Origin: an uncultured virus (IMG/VR IMGVR_UViG_3300042261_000720)
Taxonomy: Duplodnaviria > Heunggongvirae > Uroviricota > Caudoviricetes
Length of the DNA stretch: 20,000 nucleotides
Virus record (IMG/VR): IMGVR_UViG_3300042261_000720
Direction: 5' to 3' (one strand)
A model generated the notes under the pieces. That model was not told where the DNA came from and ran no database searches. It saw only the letters and a list, made by a program, of their open reading frames with translations. The position numbers and the translations under genes were made by a program. This document shows, one piece after another, positions 232 to 19,802 of the stretch (its first letter is position 1; each line of letters begins with the position of its first letter).

Positions 232-1116
232 TCATTTAGAAATAATTTTTCCAATAGTGTTTACTGCACCATCCCAAGAAAGATAGTTATTGTAGCAGTA
301 CTGCCCATATTCTAGCATATCTTTGTATTCACCGCTCTGAATAAGTTGATCAACCTTAGCAGGAATATGGTGAATTTGATCAGGAGAAATCATCAAGCAA
401 AGTTTGTTCCAATTAATGTATTCTCTAAAAGGCAACCAAAATTGATCACTAATATAAATTGGAATACAACCCATCTGAATCGTTTCATAAAATCTGAAAG
501 ATGCAGGACCATAACCACGAGGGCACAATCCAAAAATAGAATCACTCAAAAGAGTTCTAAAAGTATCAACATCTTCTTGAGAAATTGCTGCTGAAGAAGT
601 ATCATAAAGATTATAACCCTCAACATTACTCAGAGTATCAAACATTTTTTCTCTCAGTTCATGAGTGCGTCTTCCACAAAAAACAACTTTATATTGCTTG
701 TTCTCATTCTCAATCAAAGGATGAGGATCACAAAGAAGAGGAATGGGTTCATAGACAGAATTCTCACCAATAGGAGAACTAAAACTACCAGATGCAGCAA
801 AAATTTTACAATTTGGAAGTTCTATAAGAGTTCCACCATCATACTGAACAACGGTAAAAAATTTCTCATTAGGTAATTGTTCAACAACATGAGAATAAAA
901 AGTAATCAGTGGTTGTACATTTTTGCCATATCCGTTCAGAAGGTGATATGCAGTCCACTGAATAGGAAGATAAATGTAATCACTATCAATATTCTGTAAA
1001 TTTTGACTAAAAAAATTATAACAATGTTTTTCAATCAAAGGATTATTCCCCTGATGTGGGGGATAAATCATATTCATCTCAGGTAAAAAACCCTGAGGAA
1101 TCTCAAGCATTCGCAT
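232..1116 (-). CDS. exostosin-like glycosyltransferase (GT47)
   Basis: C-terminal motif SIFGLCPRGYGPASFRFYETIQMGCIPIYISDQFWLPF..INW is typical of exostosin/GT47. Confidence 0.8.
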   Translation of the reverse strand: MRMLEIPQGFLPEMNMIYPPHQGNNPLIEKHCYNFFSQNLQNIDSDYIYLPIQWTAYHLLNGYGKNVQPLITFYSHVVEQLPNEKFFTVVQYDGGTLIELPNCKIFAASGSFSSPIGENSVYEPIPLLCDPHPLIENENKQYKVVFCGRRTHELREKMFDTLSNVEGYNLYDTSSAAISQEDVDTFRTLLSDSIFGLCPRGYGPASFRFYETIQMGCIPIYISDQFWLPFREYINWNKLCLMISPDQIHHIPAKVDQLIQSGEYKDMLEYGQYCYNNYLSWDGAVNTIGKIISK

Positions 1117-2053
1117 TTTTAATCATCTCCTCATACATATGTGATGCTGCACCAGCAGCGTGTCCTGTCATGCTCCAAAAACTATCCACTCTAAGACGAT
1201 GATAATAATAAAGATCTGGAAGAATTTGGAATTTACCTTGATTAGTTAACCAGTAATATGAAAAAGCAATAACATCAGCAGCATGAGGTTCTACAGTGGG
1301 ATCCTCAACTGCTTTAAGTAAAGAATCAACATAATGGTCTCTATTAACAAAAAAGTTTCCAGTATTTAAAAATCCATTTACACCTAAACCAACTCCGACT
1401 TTAGATGACAGTTCCGTTTCCAAATCAAAAAAGTTTTGTATTCCTTTGAGATCAAAAGGTTCATACCCAAAGCGACGATGATTCCAATCATCCCAAGCAC
1501 GATATCCTTCTTTTCTTTCCATAATTGGAACACTTGGGCAATAACAAGTTTTATTGTCCCACTCACCAATATTATAAAGAGCGGATATACTACCGTCAAC
1601 TAAAAAGTTATCACTGTCCAACAAATATACCCATTCATTTTTTGATTCTTTAACTACTTTAAACTTGTTTCGGAATCCACCAAGATTTTTTTTATTTCTA
1701 ATTACTTTAATTTTTTTAGATTGCTTACTGACATCTTTAGCAGTGAGAAGATAAATTGATGCTGCTGCACCATGAATATCCTCAGGAGCTTCTACAGTAT
1801 GCTTTATAGAAGTATCAAAATAATCCGCTAAGTTATAGTCACTGATTAATCTAAAATTAGGATCATAACTAATCTTATATCCATTTAGAAGAAAAGAAAT
1901 AGACTCAAGTAAAGCATAATATTCTTCGTCAGAAGATCGATCATCACAAATCAATATTTCATCAACACGATCATCAAATAATGGCATTCTAATAGCATCT
2001 TCGAGATAATTAATGCTATTGTAAAAAGGAATTGCAACAGTAATATTTTTCAT
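1103..2053 (-). CDS. glycosyltransferase family 2 (GT-A fold)
   Basis: ITVAIPFYN, ILICDDRS, RNKKNLGG and LLDSD (DxD) motifs. Start placed at 2053 because of the ATGA overlap with the upstream stop. Confidence 0.85.
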   Translation of the reverse strand: MKNITVAIPFYNSINYLEDAIRMPLFDDRVDEILICDDRSSDEEYYALLESISFLLNGYKISYDPNFRLISDYNLADYFDTSIKHTVEAPEDIHGAAASIYLLTAKDVSKQSKKIKVIRNKKNLGGFRNKFKVVKESKNEWVYLLDSDNFLVDGSISALYNIGEWDNKTCYCPSVPIMERKEGYRAWDDWNHRRFGYEPFDLKGIQNFFDLETELSSKVGVGLGVNGFLNTGNFFVNRDHYVDSLLKAVEDPTVEPHAADVIAFSYYWLTNQGKFQILPDLYYYHRLRVDSFWSMTGHAAGAASHMYEEMIKNANA

Positions 2054-2877
2054 GAAAGGCAAGTGTCGAGCAGCATTTTATAATATTCGACTTCTGTATC
2101 TGGACAGGATTCCAATGAATAATGTGGATTGATTTTACATTCGGAATAAGTTTTAGTTGCTCCGATCCACTGACCCATTATTAGATTCCTTTCATTGAGA
2201 TATTTTTGTTTAATACAATACTCAATATCACCAACCCTATTACCAAAAACAGAAATTTTTCCAGGATGACGAGATGAGATGGAAGATGGTTCAGGATATC
2301 TTAAAGGCATCTTAAGAGATCCAATAATTCTTGCACCAGTTGACTTAATATAATCAGATCCCATCAACTCAAATTGCCAAGGATTTCCAACTCTAGATAA
2401 AACATCAATTAAAAATTGGCGACGCCAGATACATAATTGAGTTGTAGCGGAATAGTTCGCTTCTTTTTTAAGAACATATACATGGTCATCAAGCATTTCA
2501 TAATCAGATACTCGATAAGAAGGACTGATTCCCAGTTTTGCTGCACCAATAGAATAGTCATCTTCCATATAATCTAAAAGATCATGATATGCATCAAGAT
2601 CTATAAAATTACTTAAGAGATAATCATCAAGACCAAAAATAATAAAGTCATCACTAACTCTTGACAGGTAATCTACAAGATATTTTGACCAGGAATCTGG
2701 ACCGCCTTTCTGATCATCATCGAGAGCAATATAAGATCCAGCAACTAATTCACCAATATAATCACCATAGTTGAGAAAGAAAAAATCAAACTCACCTGGC
2801 ATATACTTATTAAACAAATAAGAACTGGCAGCAAGAATTTTCTTACTGCCTTCATATCCCACTAGAATGGTTTTCAT
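2050..2877 (-). CDS. hypothetical protein, probable GT-A-like glycosyltransferase
   Basis: 275-aa ORF inside the sugar island; FIIFGLDDYLL acidic motif after a beta-strand, QLCIWRR and PWQFELMGS. Confidence 0.5.
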   Translation of the reverse strand: MKTILVGYEGSKKILAASSYLFNKYMPGEFDFFFLNYGDYIGELVAGSYIALDDDQKGGPDSWSKYLVDYLSRVSDDFIIFGLDDYLLSNFIDLDAYHDLLDYMEDDYSIGAAKLGISPSYRVSDYEMLDDHVYVLKKEANYSATTQLCIWRRQFLIDVLSRVGNPWQFELMGSDYIKSTGARIIGSLKMPLRYPEPSSISSRHPGKISVFGNRVGDIEYCIKQKYLNERNLIMGQWIGATKTYSECKINPHYSLESCPDTEVEYYKMLLDTCLS

Positions 2878-3734
2878 ACCAACTCCATGATCTCCTCAAT
2901 AGTAAATCTCTCTACTTCAGAAGAATCTGGACCATCTTCTAAAATCATTTCGTGTAAGTTTTCACCAGGTTGCAGTCCAATTGTCTTAACTTTATGAGTC
3001 TCACCTTTTGGATGATACTTGCGAATCATTGCTTCCAAAAGATTGCCAACTGACATTGACTTCATCTCAGGAACATAAGGTTTGGAATCTTCGGCATCAT
3101 TTAAGCAATCAAAAATAAGATCAATTGCCTGATCAACAGTCCAATAGAAACGAGTTGCTTCAGGATCAGTGATAATTACTTCCTCATCGTTCTGAAGACG
3201 ATCTTTCCACTTACAAAGAACAGATCCAGTAGAGTACAGAACATTACCGTAACGAACAGTTCTATACTTAGTACCAGGATTCATTCTCTCATAATCAGTG
3301 AACAAACGTTCGTGAAGAAGTTTACTAGCGCCATAAACACCACTTACTTGTGCTGCCTTATCAGTACTAATACCAAGAATAAACTCAATCGGATACTTAC
3401 GAGTCAATTCCAAAATGTTTAGAGTACCATTGACGTTACCAAGAACACACTCCCGAACATTTTGTTCTGCCAAACCAACGTGCTTAAAAGCAGCAAGATG
3501 GAAAATAGCATCTACACCTTGCACTGCTTTTTCTGCACAATAGGGATCAGCAATGTCCCCAGGAATAATCTTAACGAATGGGAACTTCTCTTTGAGAGCT
3601 ACAAGTTTTCCTTCGTTACGAGAAATGGTTACAATGTTGGTACATCCTGCTGCCCAAAGACGAGCAATCAGTTCTTGCCCAAGAAATCCAGCACCACCAG
3701 TAACAAGATAGGTTTTGTTTTTATCTAGAATCAT
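2874..3734 (-). CDS. UDP-GlcNAc 4,6-dehydratase-like (PseB/FlaA1/CapD family) SDR
   Basis: TGGAGFLG, HLAAFKHV, ISTDKA, YGASK, VRYGNVLYSTGSV, TRF and GLQPGENLHE motifs. Start placed at 3734 (ATGA overlap). Confidence 0.85.
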   Translation of the reverse strand: MILDKNKTYLVTGGAGFLGQELIARLWAAGCTNIVTISRNEGKLVALKEKFPFVKIIPGDIADPYCAEKAVQGVDAIFHLAAFKHVGLAEQNVRECVLGNVNGTLNILELTRKYPIEFILGISTDKAAQVSGVYGASKLLHERLFTDYERMNPGTKYRTVRYGNVLYSTGSVLCKWKDRLQNDEEVIITDPEATRFYWTVDQAIDLIFDCLNDAEDSKPYVPEMKSMSVGNLLEAMIRKYHPKGETHKVKTIGLQPGENLHEMILEDGPDSSEVERFTIEEIMELV

Positions 3735-4468
3735 TTTACTCTCCAAATCGTCAAACTTTCACGCCACCAAAAATAAAACTTTTTATAGGAATAAGACTGT
3801 CTTAAAAATGCATCAGTCTTTTCTTTATCTAATTCGAATCCCCAAGCATTCATTAGTTTTTCTACATCATATGTAGGCAATGGACTGATGTGCTGTGGAG
3901 GAGCATCAAGTGGGGGATAAGTGCTGCTCCAAGTAAGAATGAGATATTTTCCAGTCAACTTCTTTAAGTTATCAAGGAATACATCCAAGTATTTTGGATC
4001 TACGTGCTCAGCAACTTCAGTACAGTTAACCAAATCAAACTTTAACTCTTCCTCAAATGGATCACGAATATCAAAGATGTTAATACATTCTTTGACTTCA
4101 TCATCAGCATTATCTTTCTGGTACTCGAAATATTCGATACCACAAGCATTTGCACAGTCTAGCATATTATAGACCAAATGACCAGTCGAGCATCCAATAT
4201 CACAAAAACTCTCAATCTCATCCATATTAAAAGTTGAGAGAATGCACTTATAAAACTCATCATAAGGAGAAGAATCCTCCCTAAGTTCCAACTCAGGAGG
4301 ATACATTATATCAATATCAATTTTGCCATCATCTTTAAAAGAAAGACGTGGATTACGCTCAAGAATATGAGGATCAAGTACAGAATGGTTTTTTCCAATC
4401 ACACTGGAAATGCGATCATTCCAAGATAAAAAGTGTTCGTAAAATTGTTCGATCGTTCTCTCAGTCAT
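3731..4468 (-). CDS. class I SAM-dependent methyltransferase
   Basis: FCDIGCSTG (motif I), FDIR, and FDLVNCTEVAEHV. Confidence 0.85.
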   Translation of the reverse strand: MTERTIEQFYEHFLSWNDRISSVIGKNHSVLDPHILERNPRLSFKDDGKIDIDIMYPPELELREDSSPYDEFYKCILSTFNMDEIESFCDIGCSTGHLVYNMLDCANACGIEYFEYQKDNADDEVKECINIFDIRDPFEEELKFDLVNCTEVAEHVDPKYLDVFLDNLKKLTGKYLILTWSSTYPPLDAPPQHISPLPTYDVEKLMNAWGFELDKEKTDAFLRQSYSYKKFYFWWRESLTIWRVK

Positions 4469-5328
4469 TCTCTTTCCAACAAAATGTGATTTCCTTTACC
4501 TTCATATGCCAGATAATCAACACCTTCATAAAGAGGTGGTTCATCAATTTGATAATTTGTCCAATCACCAAAGTATGGACGATTGATATCAATGATTCCA
4601 GCGATAGCATCAATTGCAGATCCAACATCCAAGAATACAGCATCAGTATAATTCTTAAGACGATGGATCAGACCAGACTTGGAATGTCCAACTCCCATCA
4701 AGAAAATCTTAGATGAAGAATTAATTAGTTGCTCACCAACCATCTTTTCGGTGGCATCAATATCATCACAAGCAAATCGTTGAGGAAGAGAAATATAATC
4801 CTCAAACTTTTCGAGTCCAAGATATTCCTGATACTGAGGTGCTTCCATCAGATTCTCAATGATTTTCATTTTACGATCAGCACCAATCAAACCAATCTTT
4901 CCAGCAAAAGTTTTCAGTAGCCACTTATTAGCAACCAACCCGTAACCATACTCAGCAGGAAAGTCAATATTAATGCCTGGAAGAACCTCCTTAAAACGTT
5001 CACGATTTTCAGGGTAAATCTCACAAGTGTAGTAATCGCACTTTGTAGCACCTTCTACGAATGCCTGGTGATCAATCTGAGCATATGACTTACTCAGTGC
5101 TCTACGACCAGGAGCAGCACTACCAATACCTTCTTTCTTTAGGAAAAAGTAATCCCCATCACCAAACTTATAGAAAGTAGAAGATGCTCCACCATCTACA
5201 AGTTCTACAAGAAGAGATTTAAATTTCTCAAGATCTTCCTGGAAAGTTGGAAAAGTTTCCGAATTACCAAAGCAAGGATGAGTATCTAGATTAGTAGACT
5301 CTTCGATTTTATAAAGATCCAAATACAT
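4465..5328 (-). CDS. hypothetical protein, possible GT-D fold (DUF1792-like) glycosyltransferase
   Basis: FYKFGDGD resembles the GT-D RFGDGE motif; C-terminal FLDVGSAID resembles the xIDIGHxD motif. Confidence 0.5.
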   Translation of the reverse strand: MYLDLYKIEESTNLDTHPCFGNSETFPTFQEDLEKFKSLLVELVDGGASSTFYKFGDGDYFFLKKEGIGSAAPGRRALSKSYAQIDHQAFVEGATKCDYYTCEIYPENRERFKEVLPGINIDFPAEYGYGLVANKWLLKTFAGKIGLIGADRKMKIIENLMEAPQYQEYLGLEKFEDYISLPQRFACDDIDATEKMVGEQLINSSSKIFLMGVGHSKSGLIHRLKNYTDAVFLDVGSAIDAIAGIIDINRPYFGDWTNYQIDEPPLYEGVDYLAYEGKGNHILLERE

Positions 5329-5329
5329 A

Positions 5330-6502
5330 TCAGTCCTCCGTTACAATAGTGCCGTGATAAACTGCTCTCTTACCATCGTAAGAAGAGATACGCTTTTCAC
5401 CATAGTATTCCTTTACCCAATAGATCACATAATCAATATCTTCTTGTGTCATACCAGGATGGCAAGGAAGACTCAGCAATTTCTGCCATTCACGATCTGC
5501 AACAGGATAATCACGATTCTGTTTTACAACACTGTACTTATGCAGTGGTTTAAAGTGAACGCTTGTATGAATCTTCTTATCTGCAAGATAATCAATCATA
5601 TCACTACGTTCAGCAGCAGGAACACGAGCACAATAATACTGAACAGTTTCTGACCAAGCAGGAGTACGAATCAGACCCTCAAGACCTTCGTTATAGCACT
5701 TCTGAATATGACGACGCCACTCAAGATTCTTAGGTAGTTTCTTCATCTGCTCCAAGCAAATGGCAGCAGAAAGATCAATCATATAGCACTTGTAACCAAG
5801 AACATCAACCTCATAATCCCAAGAATAACCAGGTTTGCCAGTCAGTCCATCATCCTTACGAACACGAGAATAGGTGCTGCTGATACCCAACCAAGTCATA
5901 GGAACAAGTTTTTCATACAGTTCCTTATCATTGGTAGTAATCATTCCACCATCACCACAAGGCATTGTCTTTACTGCCTGGAATGACCACACAACAACAT
6001 CACCCTTAGTTCCAGCACCAGGAGTGTAGCAACTATGAGCACAGTCTTCCAAAATGAATCCATCATAGAACTTACGGATTTCATCAATGGGCGCAGGAGT
6101 TCCTGCGTGATTTACAGCGATAATTGCTTTCGTATCTGGACGAAGACTTTTACGCACATCTTCAGGATCCAAACACAAAGTATCTTCCAGAACATCGACA
6201 ATATTGGAAGTGCAGTTATTCCAAAGAGGAACAACAGCAGTTGTCATAAAAGAAATGGTAGGATTGATGATATCACAATCTTTGATGCCCAGTGCTTTCA
6301 GAACAAGATCCTGACCAGTGGTGGCACTATTGACTGCAACAGCATACTTTGCACCGACCATCTCGGCAAATTTCTTTTCGAACTCGGCAACCTTAGGTCC
6401 CTTTCCCCACCATCCACTCTCAATAGATTCTCTCAGAGAGTTAAGTTCTTCTTCACCACCAACAGGGCGAAGAACAGGAAGCATAGTATCACGAATTTTC
6501 AT
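5330..6502 (-). CDS. DegT/DnrJ/EryC1/StrS PLP-dependent sugar aminotransferase
   Basis: GPKVAEFE, AVNSAT, EDCAHS, SFQAVKTM (PLP lysine), GDGGMITTND, and LSLPCHPGM. Confidence 0.93.
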   Translation of the reverse strand: MKIRDTMLPVLRPVGGEEELNSLRESIESGWWGKGPKVAEFEKKFAEMVGAKYAVAVNSATTGQDLVLKALGIKDCDIINPTISFMTTAVVPLWNNCTSNIVDVLEDTLCLDPEDVRKSLRPDTKAIIAVNHAGTPAPIDEIRKFYDGFILEDCAHSCYTPGAGTKGDVVVWSFQAVKTMPCGDGGMITTNDKELYEKLVPMTWLGISSTYSRVRKDDGLTGKPGYSWDYEVDVLGYKCYMIDLSAAICLEQMKKLPKNLEWRRHIQKCYNEGLEGLIRTPAWSETVQYYCARVPAAERSDMIDYLADKKIHTSVHFKPLHKYSVVKQNRDYPVADREWQKLLSLPCHPGMTQEDIDYVIYWVKEYYGEKRISSYDGKRAVYHGTIVTED

Positions 6503-6515
6503 TTAAATCCTCCTA

Positions 6516-7217
6516 TCAGCAAACGTGAAAATTGTTAACATCAAGAACCTTTCGGTTTCTTTCCCAGTCATTACGAACCATACCCAACCATTTTAACCAT
6601 TCATACTCAAGTTTATTTTCATTGACAAAATTATAAAGAAGTTGTTCTGATCCAACACTTTGAGAAGAATCAGTTTCCATATAGTTTATAGCATAATTTG
6701 CATAATCAAGCATAACAGAGGCATTCATCGAGAAAAACATATCATTATAAAGTCCTTGCTTATGACTCTCTACAAACTTACCATTTAGAAATGCAAAGTC
6801 TGGATTTGATAGAAGTGCTTGTTTCTCTAGTCTTTCTGTTCTCTCAAAAACGTATGGGCAAGTGAAGAAACGTCTTGCCGTGATGTAAGAAATATTCTTA
6901 TAATTATCTAGGTCAGTTTCGTCAAGGGCAGTTTTGAGCATCAACAACTCACCCATACCTTTATTCTTTGTTCCAATATTTCCTTCACTTCCAGTGACAC
7001 ACATTTCCTCTTCCGAAAGAAATTCTCTCAATTCATCATTCCGAATCTCTTCAGGATCATTAATAGTATTCTCACAGATTAATAGATCAAAAGAATCTGG
7101 AAGAACTCGTTTAAGTTGCTTGAGACAGATCAGATACTCTTCTTCTCTAGCATCATTAACCTCATCAGATAACTGAACAGGTCGCAAGGAACAAAATCCA
7201 AGTGCTAAATGTTTCAT
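6516..7217 (-). CDS. hypothetical protein (sugar island)
   Basis: 233-aa ORF downstream of an internal promoter; NKGMGE motif; no confident family. Confidence 0.7.
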   Translation of the reverse strand: MKHLALGFCSLRPVQLSDEVNDAREEEYLICLKQLKRVLPDSFDLLICENTINDPEEIRNDELREFLSEEEMCVTGSEGNIGTKNKGMGELLMLKTALDETDLDNYKNISYITARRFFTCPYVFERTERLEKQALLSNPDFAFLNGKFVESHKQGLYNDMFFSMNASVMLDYANYAINYMETDSSQSVGSEQLLYNFVNENKLEYEWLKWLGMVRNDWERNRKVLDVNNFHVC

Positions 7218-7233
7218 ACAAAAAGACAGTTTT

Positions 7234-8085
7234 TTACATTATATCAGGAAGATGGTCAAAGCACAAGTAGTCAAGACCATCCTGCAAAGGTATGGATACT
7301 TGGAATCCTAATAAACGTAATTTATTAACATTTAGAGTAAAATTCTTTGCCTGAACTCTTCGATAAAATTCTGGTGTTTCCACAGAAATAATTTCACTCT
7401 TACTAAGAAGCATTTGTTTTGCAAGAAGAATAATCTCACGATAAAGTTCGGGAGATCCTGCACCAATATTATAAATCGAATTTAGTTCTCCCTTGTCCAT
7501 TACTGTTCTAATTGCACGTGACACATCCTCAACGTGCATATAATCCCGATAATACTCACCATTATCATAAAGAGTAATTGGTTTATCTTCCTTAAGAAGA
7601 TTCACCATATGACCCAAAACATTCTTTGTATTTGATTGCGTTTTATCGTGACCGTAAATACTAGCACTACGAATAATGCGATATTTTACATCAAAAGTTT
7701 CACAAAAAGAAACAAGCAATTGTTCTGCTGCTCTTTTTGTGATTGAGTAAAATCCTTTTGGGTCACAAGGATCAGTTTCTTTAGAATCTAAAATATCATT
7801 ACCATATACAAATCCAGTGCTGATGTAATTAAAAACGGTATCCGTGTTCTTACAATACTCAAGAACTTCCATCAAAACATTCAGATTTGTATTAATATCT
7901 AAATGCAAATCATCAAATACGTTGTAATTACTGGTTGTACTTAAAAAATAAACAATGTTATTTGATTGTGGTTGTCTTTCCTCACGAGGAATCACAATTA
8001 CATCATCGGAATAAAGACGAGAAAAAACACTGCCAACGAATCCTGTGCCACCATAAACTGAAATTTTATCAGGCATATTTCTCAC
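7234..8085 (-). CDS. NAD-dependent epimerase/dehydratase (extended SDR, WcaG-like)
   Basis: GGTGFVG, YISTGFVYG, YSITK (YxxxK), RDYMHVEDV, and YNIGAG. Confidence 0.88.
   Translation of the reverse strand: MRNMPDKISVYGGTGFVGSVFSRLYSDDVIVIPREERQPQSNNIVYFLSTTSNYNVFDDLHLDINTNLNVLMEVLEYCKNTDTVFNYISTGFVYGNDILDSKETDPCDPKGFYSITKRAAEQLLVSFCETFDVKYRIIRSASIYGHDKTQSNTKNVLGHMVNLLKEDKPITLYDNGEYYRDYMHVEDVSRAIRTVMDKGELNSIYNIGAGSPELYREIILLAKQMLLSKSEIISVETPEFYRRVQAKNFTLNVNKLRLLGFQVSIPLQDGLDYLCFDHLPDIM
7238..7266 (-). promoter_or_regulatory. sigma70-type internal promoter (extended -10)
   Basis: Minus strand TTGTGC-N17-TATAAT with TGn directly before the -10, about 20 nt upstream of the 7217 start. Confidence 0.5.
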
Positions 8086-8614
8086 AATCTTTTAGAGTTT
8101 TTCCTTCAGCATCTTTTAGAGAAAGAAGAGGTTCACCATCGATCTTCCACTCAATTCCCAGTTCAGGATCATTCCAGAGAAGAGTTCTTTCATTTTCAGG
8201 ACTATACTCATTCGTAACTTTATAAAAAAATTGAGTATCATCTTCCAGAGCAAGAAACCCGTGAGCAAATCCAGGAGGAGTCCACAGAGAAAGGTTATTT
8301 TTATCAGTCAATGTAATCGAAAAATGCTGCCCAAAAGTTTTTGAGGATTGGCGAAGATCAACAATTACATCCTGAACAGCACCGCGAACAATTCTCACAA
8401 GTTTACCTTGTGGTTTTTTAATCTGATAGTGCAAACCTCTTAGTACATTTTTCTTGGAACAAGACAAATTATCCTGATAAAAATCTGCGTGAAAATCAGT
8501 GACTTCACGAAACTTTTTTAGATTAAATGGAACAGAAAAGTATCCTCGATCATCTTTGTATTGATTGATCTCAAAAATCCAAGCGCCACTCAGTTTAGTT
8601 TCTACTGCTTTCAT
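8069..8614 (-). CDS. rmlC: dTDP-4-dehydrorhamnose 3,5-epimerase
   Basis: DDRGYF, QDNLSCS, VLRGLHYQ, QGKLVR, DVIVDLR, and PPGFAHGF. Confidence 0.95.
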   Translation of the reverse strand: MKAVETKLSGAWIFEINQYKDDRGYFSVPFNLKKFREVTDFHADFYQDNLSCSKKNVLRGLHYQIKKPQGKLVRIVRGAVQDVIVDLRQSSKTFGQHFSITLTDKNNLSLWTPPGFAHGFLALEDDTQFFYKVTNEYSPENERTLLWNDPELGIEWKIDGEPLLSLKDAEGKTLKDCEKYA

Positions 8615-9521
8615 ACCACTCAATCGTTTTTCTAAGTCCGTGTTCTAAAGAATACAATGGAGACCAGAACAACGTATCTCTAATCTTTGAGATATCCGTT
8701 GAGTACCTACGGTCGTGTCCTGGTCTGTCCTGAACGTATTCTATCATATCTTCACCCCTACCCATCAAATGTAAGATTTTTTTAACAAGGTCAATATTTC
8801 TGATCTCACACTCACCACCAACATTATACTTCTCACCGCTTATTCCATCTTTCCAAACTTTAATCAATGCAGTGCAATGATCATGAACATACAACCAATC
8901 TCTTACTTGCAGTCCATCACCATATACAGGAATCTTTTTCCCATCTAAGATATTCAGAATTGTTTGTGGAATGAACTTTTCTTTATACTGTCTTGGTCCA
9001 TAATTATTAGAACAATTTGTAATATTGACTGGCAACCCGTGAGTATGATGATATGCCATTACAAAATGATCACTTGCTGCTTTAGATGCAGAATATGGAT
9101 TTCTTGGATTATAGATTGTGTTTTCAGTAAAAGATCCATAATCTATAGATCCATAAACCTCATCAGTCGAGATGTGAATAAACTTATCCACTCCATACTT
9201 AAGAGCAAGGTTTAAAATATTTACTGTCCCATTAACATTTGTATGAACAAATGGAAGAGAATCTTTGATCGAATTATCTACGTGACTTTCTGCAGCAAAG
9301 TGAAAAATAGTTTTAATTTTGTGCCTGGAAAAAATATAATCGCAAGCAGACTTGGAAGCAATATCTATTGTATAAAGTTTAACAGGATTTGGAATATAGT
9401 GCCAGTCTGCCGCATAAGTAAGTTTATCAATACAAACTATTTCTTCGTCAGTAACTTTAACTAGATGATGGAGAAAATTGCTTCCGATAAATCCTGCCCC
9501 ACCCGTGACTAATATGCTCAT
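8595..9521 (-). CDS. rmlB: dTDP-glucose 4,6-dehydratase
   Basis: TGGAGFIGSN, DKLTYA, HFAAESHVDNSI, HISTDEVYG, PYSASKA, CSNNYGP, RDWLYV, and DRPGHDRRY. Confidence 0.96.
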   Translation of the reverse strand: MSILVTGGAGFIGSNFLHHLVKVTDEEIVCIDKLTYAADWHYIPNPVKLYTIDIASKSACDYIFSRHKIKTIFHFAAESHVDNSIKDSLPFVHTNVNGTVNILNLALKYGVDKFIHISTDEVYGSIDYGSFTENTIYNPRNPYSASKAASDHFVMAYHHTHGLPVNITNCSNNYGPRQYKEKFIPQTILNILDGKKIPVYGDGLQVRDWLYVHDHCTALIKVWKDGISGEKYNVGGECEIRNIDLVKKILHLMGRGEDMIEYVQDRPGHDRRYSTDISKIRDTLFWSPLYSLEHGLRKTIEWYESSRN

Positions 9522-10009
9522 TTTTGACCGTACTTTTCTAAAAGTTCTGGAGAATACTGTAGAATATCTTTGATGTCTTTTTCTTCTCTTTTTGCTTTCT
9601 CAAGTTCGTAAACTCTATTTCTAAGTTCTGTAGTTGAGTATTGGTGTCTTCTCAAATGGTAATAGATTTCGATATCATTATCAATACAATACTGTTTACC
9701 AGTAAAATCAATATCTTTATATTCTTCACTCAAAAATCTAATATGAAAAGTCTGAGTTTTGATTAGATTGAGAAGATCTGCTTCCGTATCATAAACAAGA
9801 ATCTCATCCACATATTTACACCCCTGCACTTGAGCATATCTCTCATAAATGGATTGCACTGGTTTATTTTTTAAACTAGGTCTATCAATTGTCGGATCGA
9901 CCTGAAGTGCTACTTTTAAATAGTCACACATCTCTTTTTCCATCTTGAGCATTGTAACGTGCCCAGCATGAAAAAGATCAAAGCAACTACAATTAAAACC
10001 GATCTTCAT
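9518..10009 (-). CDS. cytidylyltransferase-like nucleotidyltransferase (TagD/glycerol-3-phosphate CT family)
   Basis: FDLFHAGH (HxGH), ER..V..CKYVDE, and R.H.YSTT motifs. Confidence 0.85.
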   Translation of the reverse strand: MKIGFNCSCFDLFHAGHVTMLKMEKEMCDYLKVALQVDPTIDRPSLKNKPVQSIYERYAQVQGCKYVDEILVYDTEADLLNLIKTQTFHIRFLSEEYKDIDFTGKQYCIDNDIEIYYHLRRHQYSTTELRNRVYELEKAKREEKDIKDILQYSPELLEKYGQK

Positions 10010-10069: not shown

Positions 10070-10222
10070 CAGTTTATGCAGGCTCGCCACTTGCTCTTTG
10101 ACCAGAAGCAAGAAACTGGGCGGGAGAGAGTCCCATCCGCACCACTTGCTTTTTAATGGGAAAGCAAGAAACCATAAGGGGTCATTTGACTCCACCACTT
10201 GGTTTTACGAAACCAAGAAAAG
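10070..10222 (-). ncRNA. manA/wcaG-like cyanophage structured RNA, 3' part (three tandem stem modules)
   Basis: Three copies of TTTCTTG(G/C)TT-loop-A(A/G)(C/G)CAAG-TGG-type stems with compensatory changes, plus GCGGATGGGA..TCCCGCC and TGGCGAGCC segments. Lies upstream of sugar genes. Family match is from memory. Confidence 0.7.
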
Positions 10223-18686: not shown

Positions 18687-18780
18687 TGCTTAACCAAATC
18701 TTAAGAGATGATTAAGTTAACGGTATCATAGCATAACCGTATCAGTTATGTCAATTAAGATACGGTTAAGACTTTTTAAG
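18687..18780 (-). promoter_or_regulatory. porin promoter with two arrays of Pho-box-like repeats
   Basis: TTGACA(18754-18749)-N18-TATGAT with TGn. Upstream CTTAAAAA/CTTAACCG/CTTAATTG; downstream CTTAATCA/CTTAAGAT/GTTAAGCA at exact 11-bp period. Confidence 0.6.
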
Positions 18781-18852
18781 AGCGGAGTATCGGATTTGAA
18801 CCGACGACATCTAACTTGGAAGGATAGCGTTCTACCACTGAACTAACTCCGC
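18781..18852 (-). tRNA. tRNA-Gly(UCC)
   Basis: GCGGAGT...ACTCCGC-T; anticodon loop CTTCCAA; T-loop TTCAAAT. Confidence 0.95.
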
Positions 18853-18854
18853 AA

Positions 18855-18906
18855 TGGTGGGGATTTACCCAGCCTCAGGTTTCCCTTCACAGGCACGGAA
18901 CCCCAC
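18855..18906 (-). ncRNA. putative small structured RNA with a kink-turn
   Basis: Outer stem GTGGGG/CCCCAC enclosing GCC-TGT-GA-AGG-GAAA-CCT-GA-GGC; ends ACCA. Confidence 0.55.
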
Positions 18907-18932
18907 GCACTTCACTTCACACGGACTTGAGA

Positions 18933-18961
18933 AGTATATGACATAATAACTATTATGTCAA
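18933..18961 (-). promoter_or_regulatory. sigma70 promoter with a palindromic spacer
   Basis: TTGACA-N17-TATACT; 18939-18960 is the perfect inverted repeat TGACATAATA-gt-TATTATGTCA. Confidence 0.8.
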
Positions 18962-18962
18962 G

Positions 18963-19034
18963 AGCCCCCGACAAGATTTGAACTTGCGACCAGCGGTTTA
19001 CAAAACCGCTGCTCTACCACTGAGCTACAAGGGC
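18963..19034 (-). tRNA. tRNA-Thr(UGU)
   Basis: GCCCTTG...CGGGGGC-T; anticodon arm GCGGT-TTTGTAA-ACCGC. Confidence 0.95.
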
Positions 19035-19324
19035 GAAACAGAAGGTTTATGATAAGAAGTAAGACCAGCGTGTAATTCTCTATGACAATTAGCACAAAGC
19101 ATATAACACTTGTCTGCTTCTTTTTTCTGCTTTTCTAAAGATTTTGTAGAACCAGAAATTTGAAACTCTTTTGTGTTTTCATTAATGTGATGAAACTCTA
19201 ATGCTTCAATACATTTATCATAACCACAAAATTCACACTTCCCGCCTTTATATTCAACAAGAAGTTCTTTTGTTCTTTTTCTCCAATTACCTACATTTTT
19301 CTTTAGTTTTTCTTGGTCTCTCAT
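19025..19324 (-). CDS. free-standing HNH endonuclease (putative homing endonuclease)
   Basis: GGKCEFCGY...LEFHH...KC.MLCANCHRELH: a Zn-binding HNH signature. Confidence 0.9.
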   Translation of the reverse strand: MRDQEKLKKNVGNWRKRTKELLVEYKGGKCEFCGYDKCIEALEFHHINENTKEFQISGSTKSLEKQKKEADKCYMLCANCHRELHAGLTSYHKPSVSPL

Positions 19325-19327
19325 AGT

Positions 19328-19357
19328 GATTAACTTAATATGTTAATCTTATTTATA
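19328..19357 (-). promoter_or_regulatory. T4 late promoter plus translation-initiation hairpin for the HNH gene
   Basis: TATAAATA (19357-19350) followed by the GATTAAC-N7-GTTAATC hairpin ending 3 nt before the ATG. Confidence 0.7.
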
Positions 19358-19364
19358 AGACCAA

Positions 19365-19437
19365 CTCCCCGAGTAGGGCACGATCCTACAACCTCAGTGT
19401 TAACAGCACTTTGCTCTACCAATTGAGCTATCGGGGA
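19365..19437 (-). tRNA. tRNA-Asn(GUU) with an atypical T-loop
   Basis: TCCCCGA...TCGGGGA-G; anticodon loop CTGTTAA; T-arm GTAGG-ATCGTGC-CCTAC. Confidence 0.88.
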
Positions 19438-19687: not shown

Positions 19688-19691
19688 AAGA

Positions 19692-19766
19692 GACCTCCCT
19701 GTTTGTGCTTCTATGAGAGGCATGGGAGGGGCAGGACTTACACGGAGTTTGGACCCCCGCCGCCTA
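19692..19766 (-). ncRNA. GC-rich two-hairpin leader RNA candidate
   Basis: GGCGG-CGGGG..CTCCG..CCTGCC followed by CCTCCC...GGGAGG, between the promoter and tRNA-Arg. Confidence 0.4.
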
Positions 19767-19773
19767 TGAGGGT

Positions 19774-19802
19774 ATTATACTACTGCTTAGGGCAGTCGTC
19801 AA
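19774..19802 (-). promoter_or_regulatory. sigma70 promoter of the tRNA cluster
   Basis: TTGACG-N17-TATAAT. Confidence 0.85.

Follow-up and report, generated by a model that had tools for sequence, protein, structure and literature searches.

A conserved hairpin with a kink-turn signature in the tRNA arrays of freshwater cyanomyophages, and its association with a head predicted to be antisense to a host tRNA-Val(CAC)

A phage tRNA-Gly gene preceded by an RNA that spells out a kink-turn (k-turn) raises the questions of whether this element is a genuine structured RNA and, if so, which partner it would have. The element was predicted in a stretch of 20,000 nt from an uncultured virus of the Caudoviricetes (IMG/VR record IMGVR_UViG_3300042261_000720), called the window below. 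The window has the appearance of a freshwater cyanomyophage, with seven tRNAs and one wcaG RNA (10076-10176, minus strand, 100.8 bits), downstream of which lies a sugar-nucleotide/polysaccharide gene cluster (region 232-10009). Genes for PTOX, ferritin, a PstS-like protein and an OprB/SLH porin are interspersed with single tRNA genes. The closest isolate is Synechococcus phage S-SRM01, which is 74% identical across the stretch from tRNA-Thr to tRNA-Gly and has the gene order Arg-Asn-Thr-Gly-porin in common with the window. On the minus strand, tRNA-Thr (19034-18962) is followed by a promoter, the leader (18926-18853) and tRNA-Gly(UCC) (18852-18780). The features are the following, all on the minus strand:

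18962..19034, tRNA-Thr(UGU), immediately 5' of the leader promoter
18933..18961, sigma-70-type promoter TTGACA-17-TATACT, 11/12 consensus matches
18907..18926, head GUCCGUGUGAAGUGAAGUGC, predicted antisense to tRNA-Val(CAC) positions ~24-41, with one bulged U
18853..18909, k-turn hairpin module including the 3' tail CAUU (model R1, 74.9 bits)
18901..18906, outer stem 5' strand GUGGGG; 4 of the 6 pairs doubly changed among 40 distinct sequences
18895..18900, UU (unpaired), CC (with GG at 18869-68) and GU (opposite UG at 18871-70), near-invariant
18872..18894, k-turn core (C stem GCC/GGC, bulge UGU, G.A/A.G, NC stem AGG/CCU, GAAA loop)
18894-92, C stem 5' strand GCC
18891-89, bulge UGU
18888-87, first GA
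18886-84, NC stem 5' strand AGG
18883-80, GAAA loop
18879-77, NC stem 3' strand CCU
18876-75, second GA
18874-72, C stem 3' strand GGC
18863..18871, UG, GG and the internal-loop strand UAAAU (UAAAU in 39/40)
18857..18862, outer stem 3' strand CCCCAC, partner of GUGGGG
18780..18852, tRNA-Gly(UCC), from a tRNA search of the window

The string GCC-UGU-GA-AGG-GAAA-CCU-GA-GGC, on which the original prediction was built, is present on the minus strand at 18894-18872 with every element in its place, and forms the core of a hairpin module of ~50 nt. From outside to inside, this module consists of the outer stem, the UU/UAAAU internal loop, CC/GG, GU/UG and the C stem GCC/GGC, and innermost of the 3-nt bulge, the tandem G.A/A.G, an NC stem of 3-4 bp and the GAAA loop. 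The enclosing GUGGGG/CCCCAC stem and an ACCA placed 2 nt before tRNA-Gly, both part of the same prediction, were also located in the window, the ACCA at 18858-55 being followed by UU and then by tRNA-Gly(UCC). As a feature of the element, the ACCA did not hold up: it is not kept in relatives, in which the 3' tails read CAUU, ACCU, UUCG, CCUG, UUCUG and others.

A strict descriptor of a hairpin k-turn (3-bp C stem, 3-nt bulge, GA, 3-4-bp NC stem, loop of 3-8 nt, GA) has three matches on both strands of the window, against a mean of 0.48 (sd 0.75) in 100 dinucleotide shuffles. As 34 of these 100 shuffles contain at least one match, the k-turn motif alone is not significant. The leader has modest MFE z-scores (-1.4 to -2.2), and a scan for the k-turn pattern returned, among the matches listed, mostly chance ones in coding DNA. 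A search of Rfam, proposed along with the original prediction, matched no family: the leader is unmatched even at E <= 10, and four loci from relatives (type C, headless and Leu-type, described below) are unmatched at E <= 1. The significance of the k-turn element rests on its relatives, in which it recurs near-unchanged and with compensatory changes.

A covariance model of 59 positions, R1, was built from 15 sequences, and 40 distinct module sequences were aligned to it. With an agreement that is inflated by close relatives, by patterns fixing parts of the element and by an alignment fitted to R1, paired cells reach 95.7% versus 87.8% in shuffles (0/500 as high), cells changed on both sides number 57 versus 18.6 (0/500), and the covariation score is 0.249 versus 0.125 in shuffles and 0.037-0.134 in slid controls. 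Double changes affect four pairs of the outer stem and two of the NC stem. The C stem and the CC/GG pairs display no covariation, and their variation neither confirms nor contradicts the pairing. Separately, columns 12 and 43 of alignment A4, which are not partners in the model, change jointly from C to U and from G to U in L146, L172 and L191 (L215 likewise), giving a U.G and a C/U mismatch; this joint change may reflect a non-Watson-Crick contact or shared descent.

The C stem GCC/GGC, with C-G at -1b.-1n, is kept in 37-40 of the 40 distinct sequences. The bulge is UGU or UAU in all 40 and constant in length, L1 and L3 being U throughout and L2 being G in 32 and A in 8. At the tandem G.A/A.G, G1b is kept in 39/40 and A2b, G2n and A1n in 40/40. 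The NC helix extends 3-4 bp beyond the G.A pairs and exists in compensatory versions (AGG/CCU, AGA/UCU, AGAG/CUCU and AGGA/UCCU), while 3b.3n is A-U in 35 sequences, G.U in 1 and non-standard in 4 (A.A in 2, U.U in 2). Outside of the k-turn proper, GAAA is found in 38/40, UU, UAAAU and UG each in 39/40 and GU in 40/40. As far as an alignment can tell, this pattern is, position by position, the one expected of real k-turns. It is very improbable that a conserved hairpin with another internal-loop geometry resembles a k-turn by chance: the bare descriptor is indeed common, as the 34 matched shuffles illustrate, but the conservation follows the k-turn rules at each position. The k-turn consensus announced by the original prediction is thus borne out among relatives, in which the G.A positions are kept in 39-40 of 40 sequences and the outer and NC stems on the flanks covary. 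From these comparisons, the k-turn element is a genuine structured RNA module, conserved and bearing a complete k-turn signature at the sequence level.

The distribution of the module was explored with several anchors. When viral contigs were searched with the 5' box of the leader, 43 contigs with a leader were retrieved; each of them has the promoter as well as the 5' box, and in each a closing stem precedes tRNA-Gly(UCC) by a few nt. Their tails fall into three types, namely the k-turn hairpin (23 contigs), a plain hairpin (6), which is also that of S-SRM01, and a long cloverleaf-like structure (14), designated type C. The type C tail is a 70-nt three-hairpin fold (z = -2.97). In L014 (326-420, minus strand) and 13 other loci, an 8-bp closing stem surrounds three hairpins, the T-arm-like one abutting the closing stem; one compensatory pair occurs among 6 sequences, and neither ARAGORN nor Rfam calls this tail a tRNA. 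Among 80 loci anchored on the porin gene, a set unbiased for leader presence, 34 have tRNA-Gly upstream, of which 20 carry the k-turn tail, 6 the plain hairpin and 8 no leader. Since a plain hairpin or a cloverleaf-like fold can occupy the same site in relatives, the tail is exchangeable.

In a further scan, only the flanks TTCCGTGCC ... GGCTGGGTAAAT were fixed and the k-turn was free to vary. Family members make up 67 of the 68 loci found, and 65 of these 67 keep both G.A pairs. The interiors are as follows:

UGUGAAGGGAAACCUGA, 37 loci
UGUGAAGAGGAAACUCUGA, 20 loci
UGUGAAGAGAAAUCUGA, 4 loci
UAUGAAGAGGAAACUCUGA, 2 loci
UGUAAAGAGGAAACUCUGA, with G1b lost, 2 loci
AGGA/UCCU, 1 locus
AGGA/UCCA, 1 locus

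A metagenome scan gave 81 family members out of 104 loci, the other 23 being unrelated and 15 of those belonging to one coding gene; both G.A pairs and the GAAA loop are each found in 79/81, these counts overlapping with those of the viral contigs as the two collections share some assemblies and the scans are not independent. The metagenome scan added the U.U and G.U variants of 3b.3n. Variants that break the rules are a change of G1b to A (2/67 and 2/81 loci) and a non-GNRA loop (2/81).

The module is not confined to tRNA-Gly. It is also found, together with promoter and head, before tRNA-Leu(UAA), and headless copies, devoid of both promoter and 5' box, lie between tRNA-Ile(UAU) and tRNA-Met(CAU). 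Wherever ARAGORN called the flanking tRNAs, only a few nt separate the module from the tRNA that follows it; no tRNA is visible 5' of a small number of the metagenome copies. A search with R1 found one copy in the window, its sole match there, and four large phage records (236, 205, 181 and 123 kb) have a single copy apiece. The search found none in S-SRM01, none in the nearest record (G001, a 19.5-kb fragment) and none in five candidate host genomes, this last result being weak evidence with 150 of about 1150-1340 candidates scored per genome. A blastn search with the 74-nt leader against 50,697 phage records gave no match at E <= 0.01, and S-SRM01, with its plain hairpin, is the only phage record aligning across the spacer. 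The module is an independent unit of phage tRNA arrays, present once per genome in a group of freshwater cyanomyophages. The tRNA-Gly(UCC) genes behind the same leader have at least five clearly different sequence backbones (loci L003-L045), so that the leader is more uniform than the tRNA that follows it.

Two simpler explanations bear on this distribution. The hairpin could be a plain processing or stability element that spaces and insulates the tRNAs or guards a 3' end, its k-turn consensus being functionless. The position of the module a few nt before a tRNA wherever ARAGORN called the flanking tRNAs, the plain hairpins found at the same place in relatives and the absence of a leader from 8/34 porin-linked tRNA-Gly genes all agree with such a role. 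Loops and bulge would then be expected to drift, yet the flanking stems change while 38-40 of 40 distinct sequences retain GAAA, UAAAU, UU, GU/UG and each of the four G.A positions, and we consider this explanation rather unlikely. Alternatively, the near-identity of the copies could result from the recent spread of a 38-nt insert moving as a cassette between hairpin loops in tRNA arrays. The insert varies less than the outer stems, heads and adjacent tRNAs and is found in three different tRNA contexts, and the arrays contain homing-endonuclease-like ORFs, of which that at 19025-19324 was read by eye. Against a recent origin, the NC stem already carries compensatory changes, the unpaired positions are fixed and the borders show neither repeats nor target duplications, which makes recent spread clearly unlikely.

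In the ORF just mentioned (99 aa, minus strand), inspection of the DNA by eye shows an HNH-like motif (EFHHIN ... CANCH); Pfam gives no match at 1e-3. The ORF separates tRNA-Asn from tRNA-Thr, extending into the start of the latter; several relatives are devoid of it, their Asn and Thr tRNAs being adjacent. The same array includes another leader, of ~85 nt, which precedes tRNA-Arg (region 19688-19802, minus strand) behind a second promoter, TTGACG-17-TATAAT (19802-19774). This leader includes a match to the abiF RNA of Rfam (19729-19693, 44.8 bits versus a gathering score of 37) and is conserved in S-SRM01. It has no consistent complement in the five candidate host genomes, in which its matches are scattered (E 0.2-3).

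The leader that carries the module lies behind its own strong promoter, as originally proposed: TTGACA-17-TATACT has 11/12 consensus matches, and its sequence is conserved in relatives. The spacer of this promoter is palindromic (GACATAATA at 18959-18951, TATTATGTC at 18948-18940), and by eye the two arms change jointly in relatives (loci L003-L125: GACATAAT/ATTATGTC, GACGAAAT/ATTTCGTC, GACAAAAT/ATTTTGTC and GACAGAA/TTCTGTC). The palindrome could be an operator, or a hairpin in read-through RNA just after tRNA-Thr. A further promoter is found 3' of tRNA-Gly (18725-18770, minus strand; TTGACA-18-TATGAT with an extended TG), with an inverted repeat AACCGTATC / GATACGGTT on its flanks; relatives have the same layout 5' of the porin gene. 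The 5' end of the leader should coincide with the start of the head, ~7 nt past the -10 box, and cleavage by RNase P at tRNA-Gly +1 would plausibly set the 3' end and free a discrete RNA of ~74 nt (18926-18853). No terminator-like site follows the leader.

Parts of the leader stretch are present in 20 rows from lake and other aquatic RNA libraries, and contigs cover it in all four metatranscriptome runs examined, at depths of 32, 16, 5 and 6; these data are contigs that reveal neither transcript ends nor strand and that may include DNA carry-over. Such depths (5-32) are low versus that of the adjoining porin gene. The AGAG/CUCU variant is found in two of the four runs. The bins at 19308-19399 are uncovered in all four and the HNH-like ORF is little covered, which is uninformative as this stretch is absent in relatives. 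One contig ends 3 nt before tRNA-Gly (record 8, run X1), an end that is not readable as that of an RNA. In the predicted fold, the last bases of the head, AGUG, pair with the 3' tail CAUU, leaving ~15 nt single-stranded.

These ~15 nt belong to the head, for which a target was found in the host. The candidate hosts are five freshwater Synechococcus/Cyanobium, designated from ~49% porin identity alone. All five possess a tRNA-Val(CAC) with the anticodon arm CUUCC-UUCACAC-GGAAG, with which the leader heads form perfect Watson-Crick runs of 12-16 nt. That of the window pairs as UCCGUGUGAAG-U-GAAGUGC, i.e. 11 + 7 pairs around one bulged U. A 15-nt core of the head has exactly one site per genome in the five hosts, always antisense to the tRNA-Val(CAC) gene; the exact 20-nt head of the window has no site within 3 mismatches in these five genomes because of its 1-nt insertion. 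With tRNA modifications and tertiary structure left out of the energies, the duplex of the head with tRNA-Val(CAC) is predicted at -31.2 kcal/mol, versus -20.8 for the next best of 26 tRNAs (host Val-GAC) and -19.0 for the phage's own tRNA-Val(UAC), which is non-complementary to the head; 500 shuffled heads give a mean of -14.2 (sd 2.8) and a lowest value of -24.3, and the arm's own hairpin amounts to -4.1. The box GUGUGAAG, which complements C31 and the entire anticodon loop, is kept in nearly all heads, one metagenome variant reading GUGUGGAG. Of 301 genomes sampled from the phylum of the hosts, 48 have the exact 17-nt arm, each in a single copy. From crude ORF sets, GUG represents 53% of 1109 valine codons in host loci versus 10% of 294 in the window.

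Taken together, the head is, at the level of base complementarity, antisense to the anticodon arm of host tRNA-Val(CAC), and the leader has two properties of trans-acting antisense small RNAs, its own promoter and an extended, specific complementarity. Two other readings of the head were rejected. A decayed inverted tRNA gene or attachment site does not account for a likeness that, by eye, ends at 18 nt and sits at the promoter +1. An external guide sequence for RNase P would place the antisense part beside the 3' ACCA; here it lies 5' of the hairpin, and the ACCA is unconserved.

A 5' leader in which a k-turn accompanies an element complementary to an anticodon calls to mind the T-box, whose Stem I, also in a 5' leader, combines a k-turn with a codon-like element that pairs with the tRNA anticodon. 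By analogy, the binding of tRNA-Val(CAC) to the head could alter tRNA-Gly processing or read-through into the porin gene, the k-turn having an architectural role as at the base of Stem I. The complementarity of the head covers the entire anticodon loop, and both the k-turn and the 5' position fit this proposal. The leader nevertheless has neither a T-box match in Rfam nor a terminator/antiterminator pair, its downstream gene is a tRNA, the porin gene has a second promoter, and the pairing, of 12-18 nt, reaches the anticodon stem and would require the tRNA to unfold. We therefore regard tRNA sensing of this kind as improbable.

The next issue is the partner of the k-turn, which the original prediction had sought among L7Ae-family proteins. 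The hairpin would then form an RNP as in box C/D and H/ACA RNAs, U4 and archaeal RNase P, and it does have a textbook k-turn sequence and a short loop-capped NC stem that resembles the 5' stem-loop of U4. The proposed protein was not recovered: the L7Ae family (PF01248) is found in 0/5 phage records, three of those 96-100% complete, and above cut-off in 0/5 candidate host genomes (best 11.7 bits, E = 0.45), against 8 positives in 14 control genomes, among which Synechococcus elongatus, a cyanobacterium, is negative. Nor does Rfam give a C/D, U4 or other family at E <= 10. An L7Ae-type RNP is therefore extremely doubtful.

The pair at 3b.3n is informative in this respect. According to McPhee, Huang and Lilley (PMC4382518), k-turns with a Watson-Crick or G.U pair at this position fold poorly in Mg2+ alone and do so on protein binding or via tertiary contacts, and U4 typifies the protein-dependent class. 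With A-U at 3b.3n in 35/40 sequences, the module falls among the k-turns for which Mg2+ alone does not suffice, and by this rule the turn should not kink unaided and needs a partner; U4 being of the same class is a point in favour of an L7Ae-type protein. The profile searches above indicate that the partner is not L7Ae and would instead be a tertiary contact or a new protein.

The near-invariance of GAAA, UAAAU, UU and GU/UG, all formally unpaired, argues for a specific contact. Counted from the sequence, the GAAA loop and the UU/UAAAU loop each lie ~7 steps from the kink, on either arm. We infer that the kink would lay the GAAA loop against the UU/UAAAU loop, which would act as a tetraloop-receptor-like or protein-contact region and which we take to bear a likeness to the 11-nt receptor. 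The NC stem is of 3 or 4 bp without any compensating change in the other arm, and this disfavours a rigid intramolecular dock between loop and receptor. A non-L7Ae protein and a dock between GAAA and UU/UAAAU appear about as likely as each other.

The following model can be drawn, which we favour with modest confidence. The leader would be a promoter-proximal RNA made of a 5' anti-tRNA-Val(CAC) head and of an exchangeable structured tail, the k-turn tail being under additional constraint. By cutting at tRNA-Gly +1, RNase P would release the leader, which would then be a discrete RNA. As the tail can be exchanged, the task shared by all tails would most likely be to provide a stable, defined 3' structure for the released RNA. 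The k-turn tail would in addition engage either in a tertiary contact, for instance one in which the kink brings the tetraloop back onto the UU/UAAAU loop, or in binding a non-L7Ae protein. Neither the head nor the k-turn hairpin needs the other, since the head is also joined to other tails and headless k-turn hairpins exist. A more ambitious scheme, which is a tentative possibility, is that of a phage-made anti-tRNA RNA whose head would invade the anticodon arm of tRNA-Val(CAC) and whose k-turn tail would dock a non-L7Ae factor acting on the captured tRNA. If so, the disabling of a host tRNA that decodes GUG would tilt translation towards phage messages, and the leader would be a bacterial-virus counterpart of guide RNPs.

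The leader shares traits with several known RNAs. The 5' stem-loop of U4 snRNA has the layout of a hairpin-form k-turn, and the module has in common with it and with standard k-turns the C stem, the 3-nt bulge, the tandem G.A/A.G and a short NC stem with a loop at its end. Unlike U4, the module belongs to a bacterial virus and to a tRNA array, it has an additional invariant UU/UAAAU loop and GU/UG, and a protein of the L7Ae/15.5K type was not found in the phage records or candidate hosts. Archaeal box C/D guide RNAs that target tRNAs likewise associate a k-turn with an antisense to a tRNA anticodon arm, and a box D-like CUGA is present in the module. Box C has the consensus RUGAUGA, where the leader has CUGUGAAG; moreover, the antisense part of the leader is not adjacent to box D but at the 5' end, outside of the k-turn hairpin, the leader has no Rfam match, and L7Ae was not found in the phage records or candidate hosts. 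The tRNA cluster of phage T4 encodes species 1 and 2, small stable RNAs that are not tRNAs and that are presumably freed by tRNA processing enzymes. Like them, the leader would be a non-tRNA small RNA encoded in the tRNA array of a T4-like phage; no k-turn or anti-tRNA head is known in species 1 and 2. Lastly, in the k-turn or pk-turn of P16-P17 in RNase P RNA and in the k-turn of the SAM-I riboswitch, the kink brings a distal loop to its receptor, according to PMC3672288 and PMC3651934. The module differs from these in that a receptor function of UU/UAAAU is our proposal and in that its NC stem varies in length, against a rigid dock.

Judged by title and abstract opening, no paper on a k-turn leader from cyanophages was found among the matches listed, and none on a viral RNA aimed at host tRNA-Val(CAC). 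The module is new to Rfam, and the combination of a k-turn tail and an anti-tRNA-Val head was found in no paper, by titles and abstract openings. It constitutes an easily modelled RNA family (R1, 59 positions) that marks the tRNA arrays of abundant lake cyanophages. K-turns with a Watson-Crick pair at 3b.3n are thought to await a protein, usually of the L7Ae family, and here such a k-turn is strongly conserved in a virus-host pair that apparently has no L7Ae protein. This would point either to a new k-turn partner in cyanobacteria or their phages, or to a compact tertiary fold that holds the turn. With its anti-tRNA-Val(CAC) head, the module would make it possible to test directly whether a virus aims an RNA at a single host tRNA.
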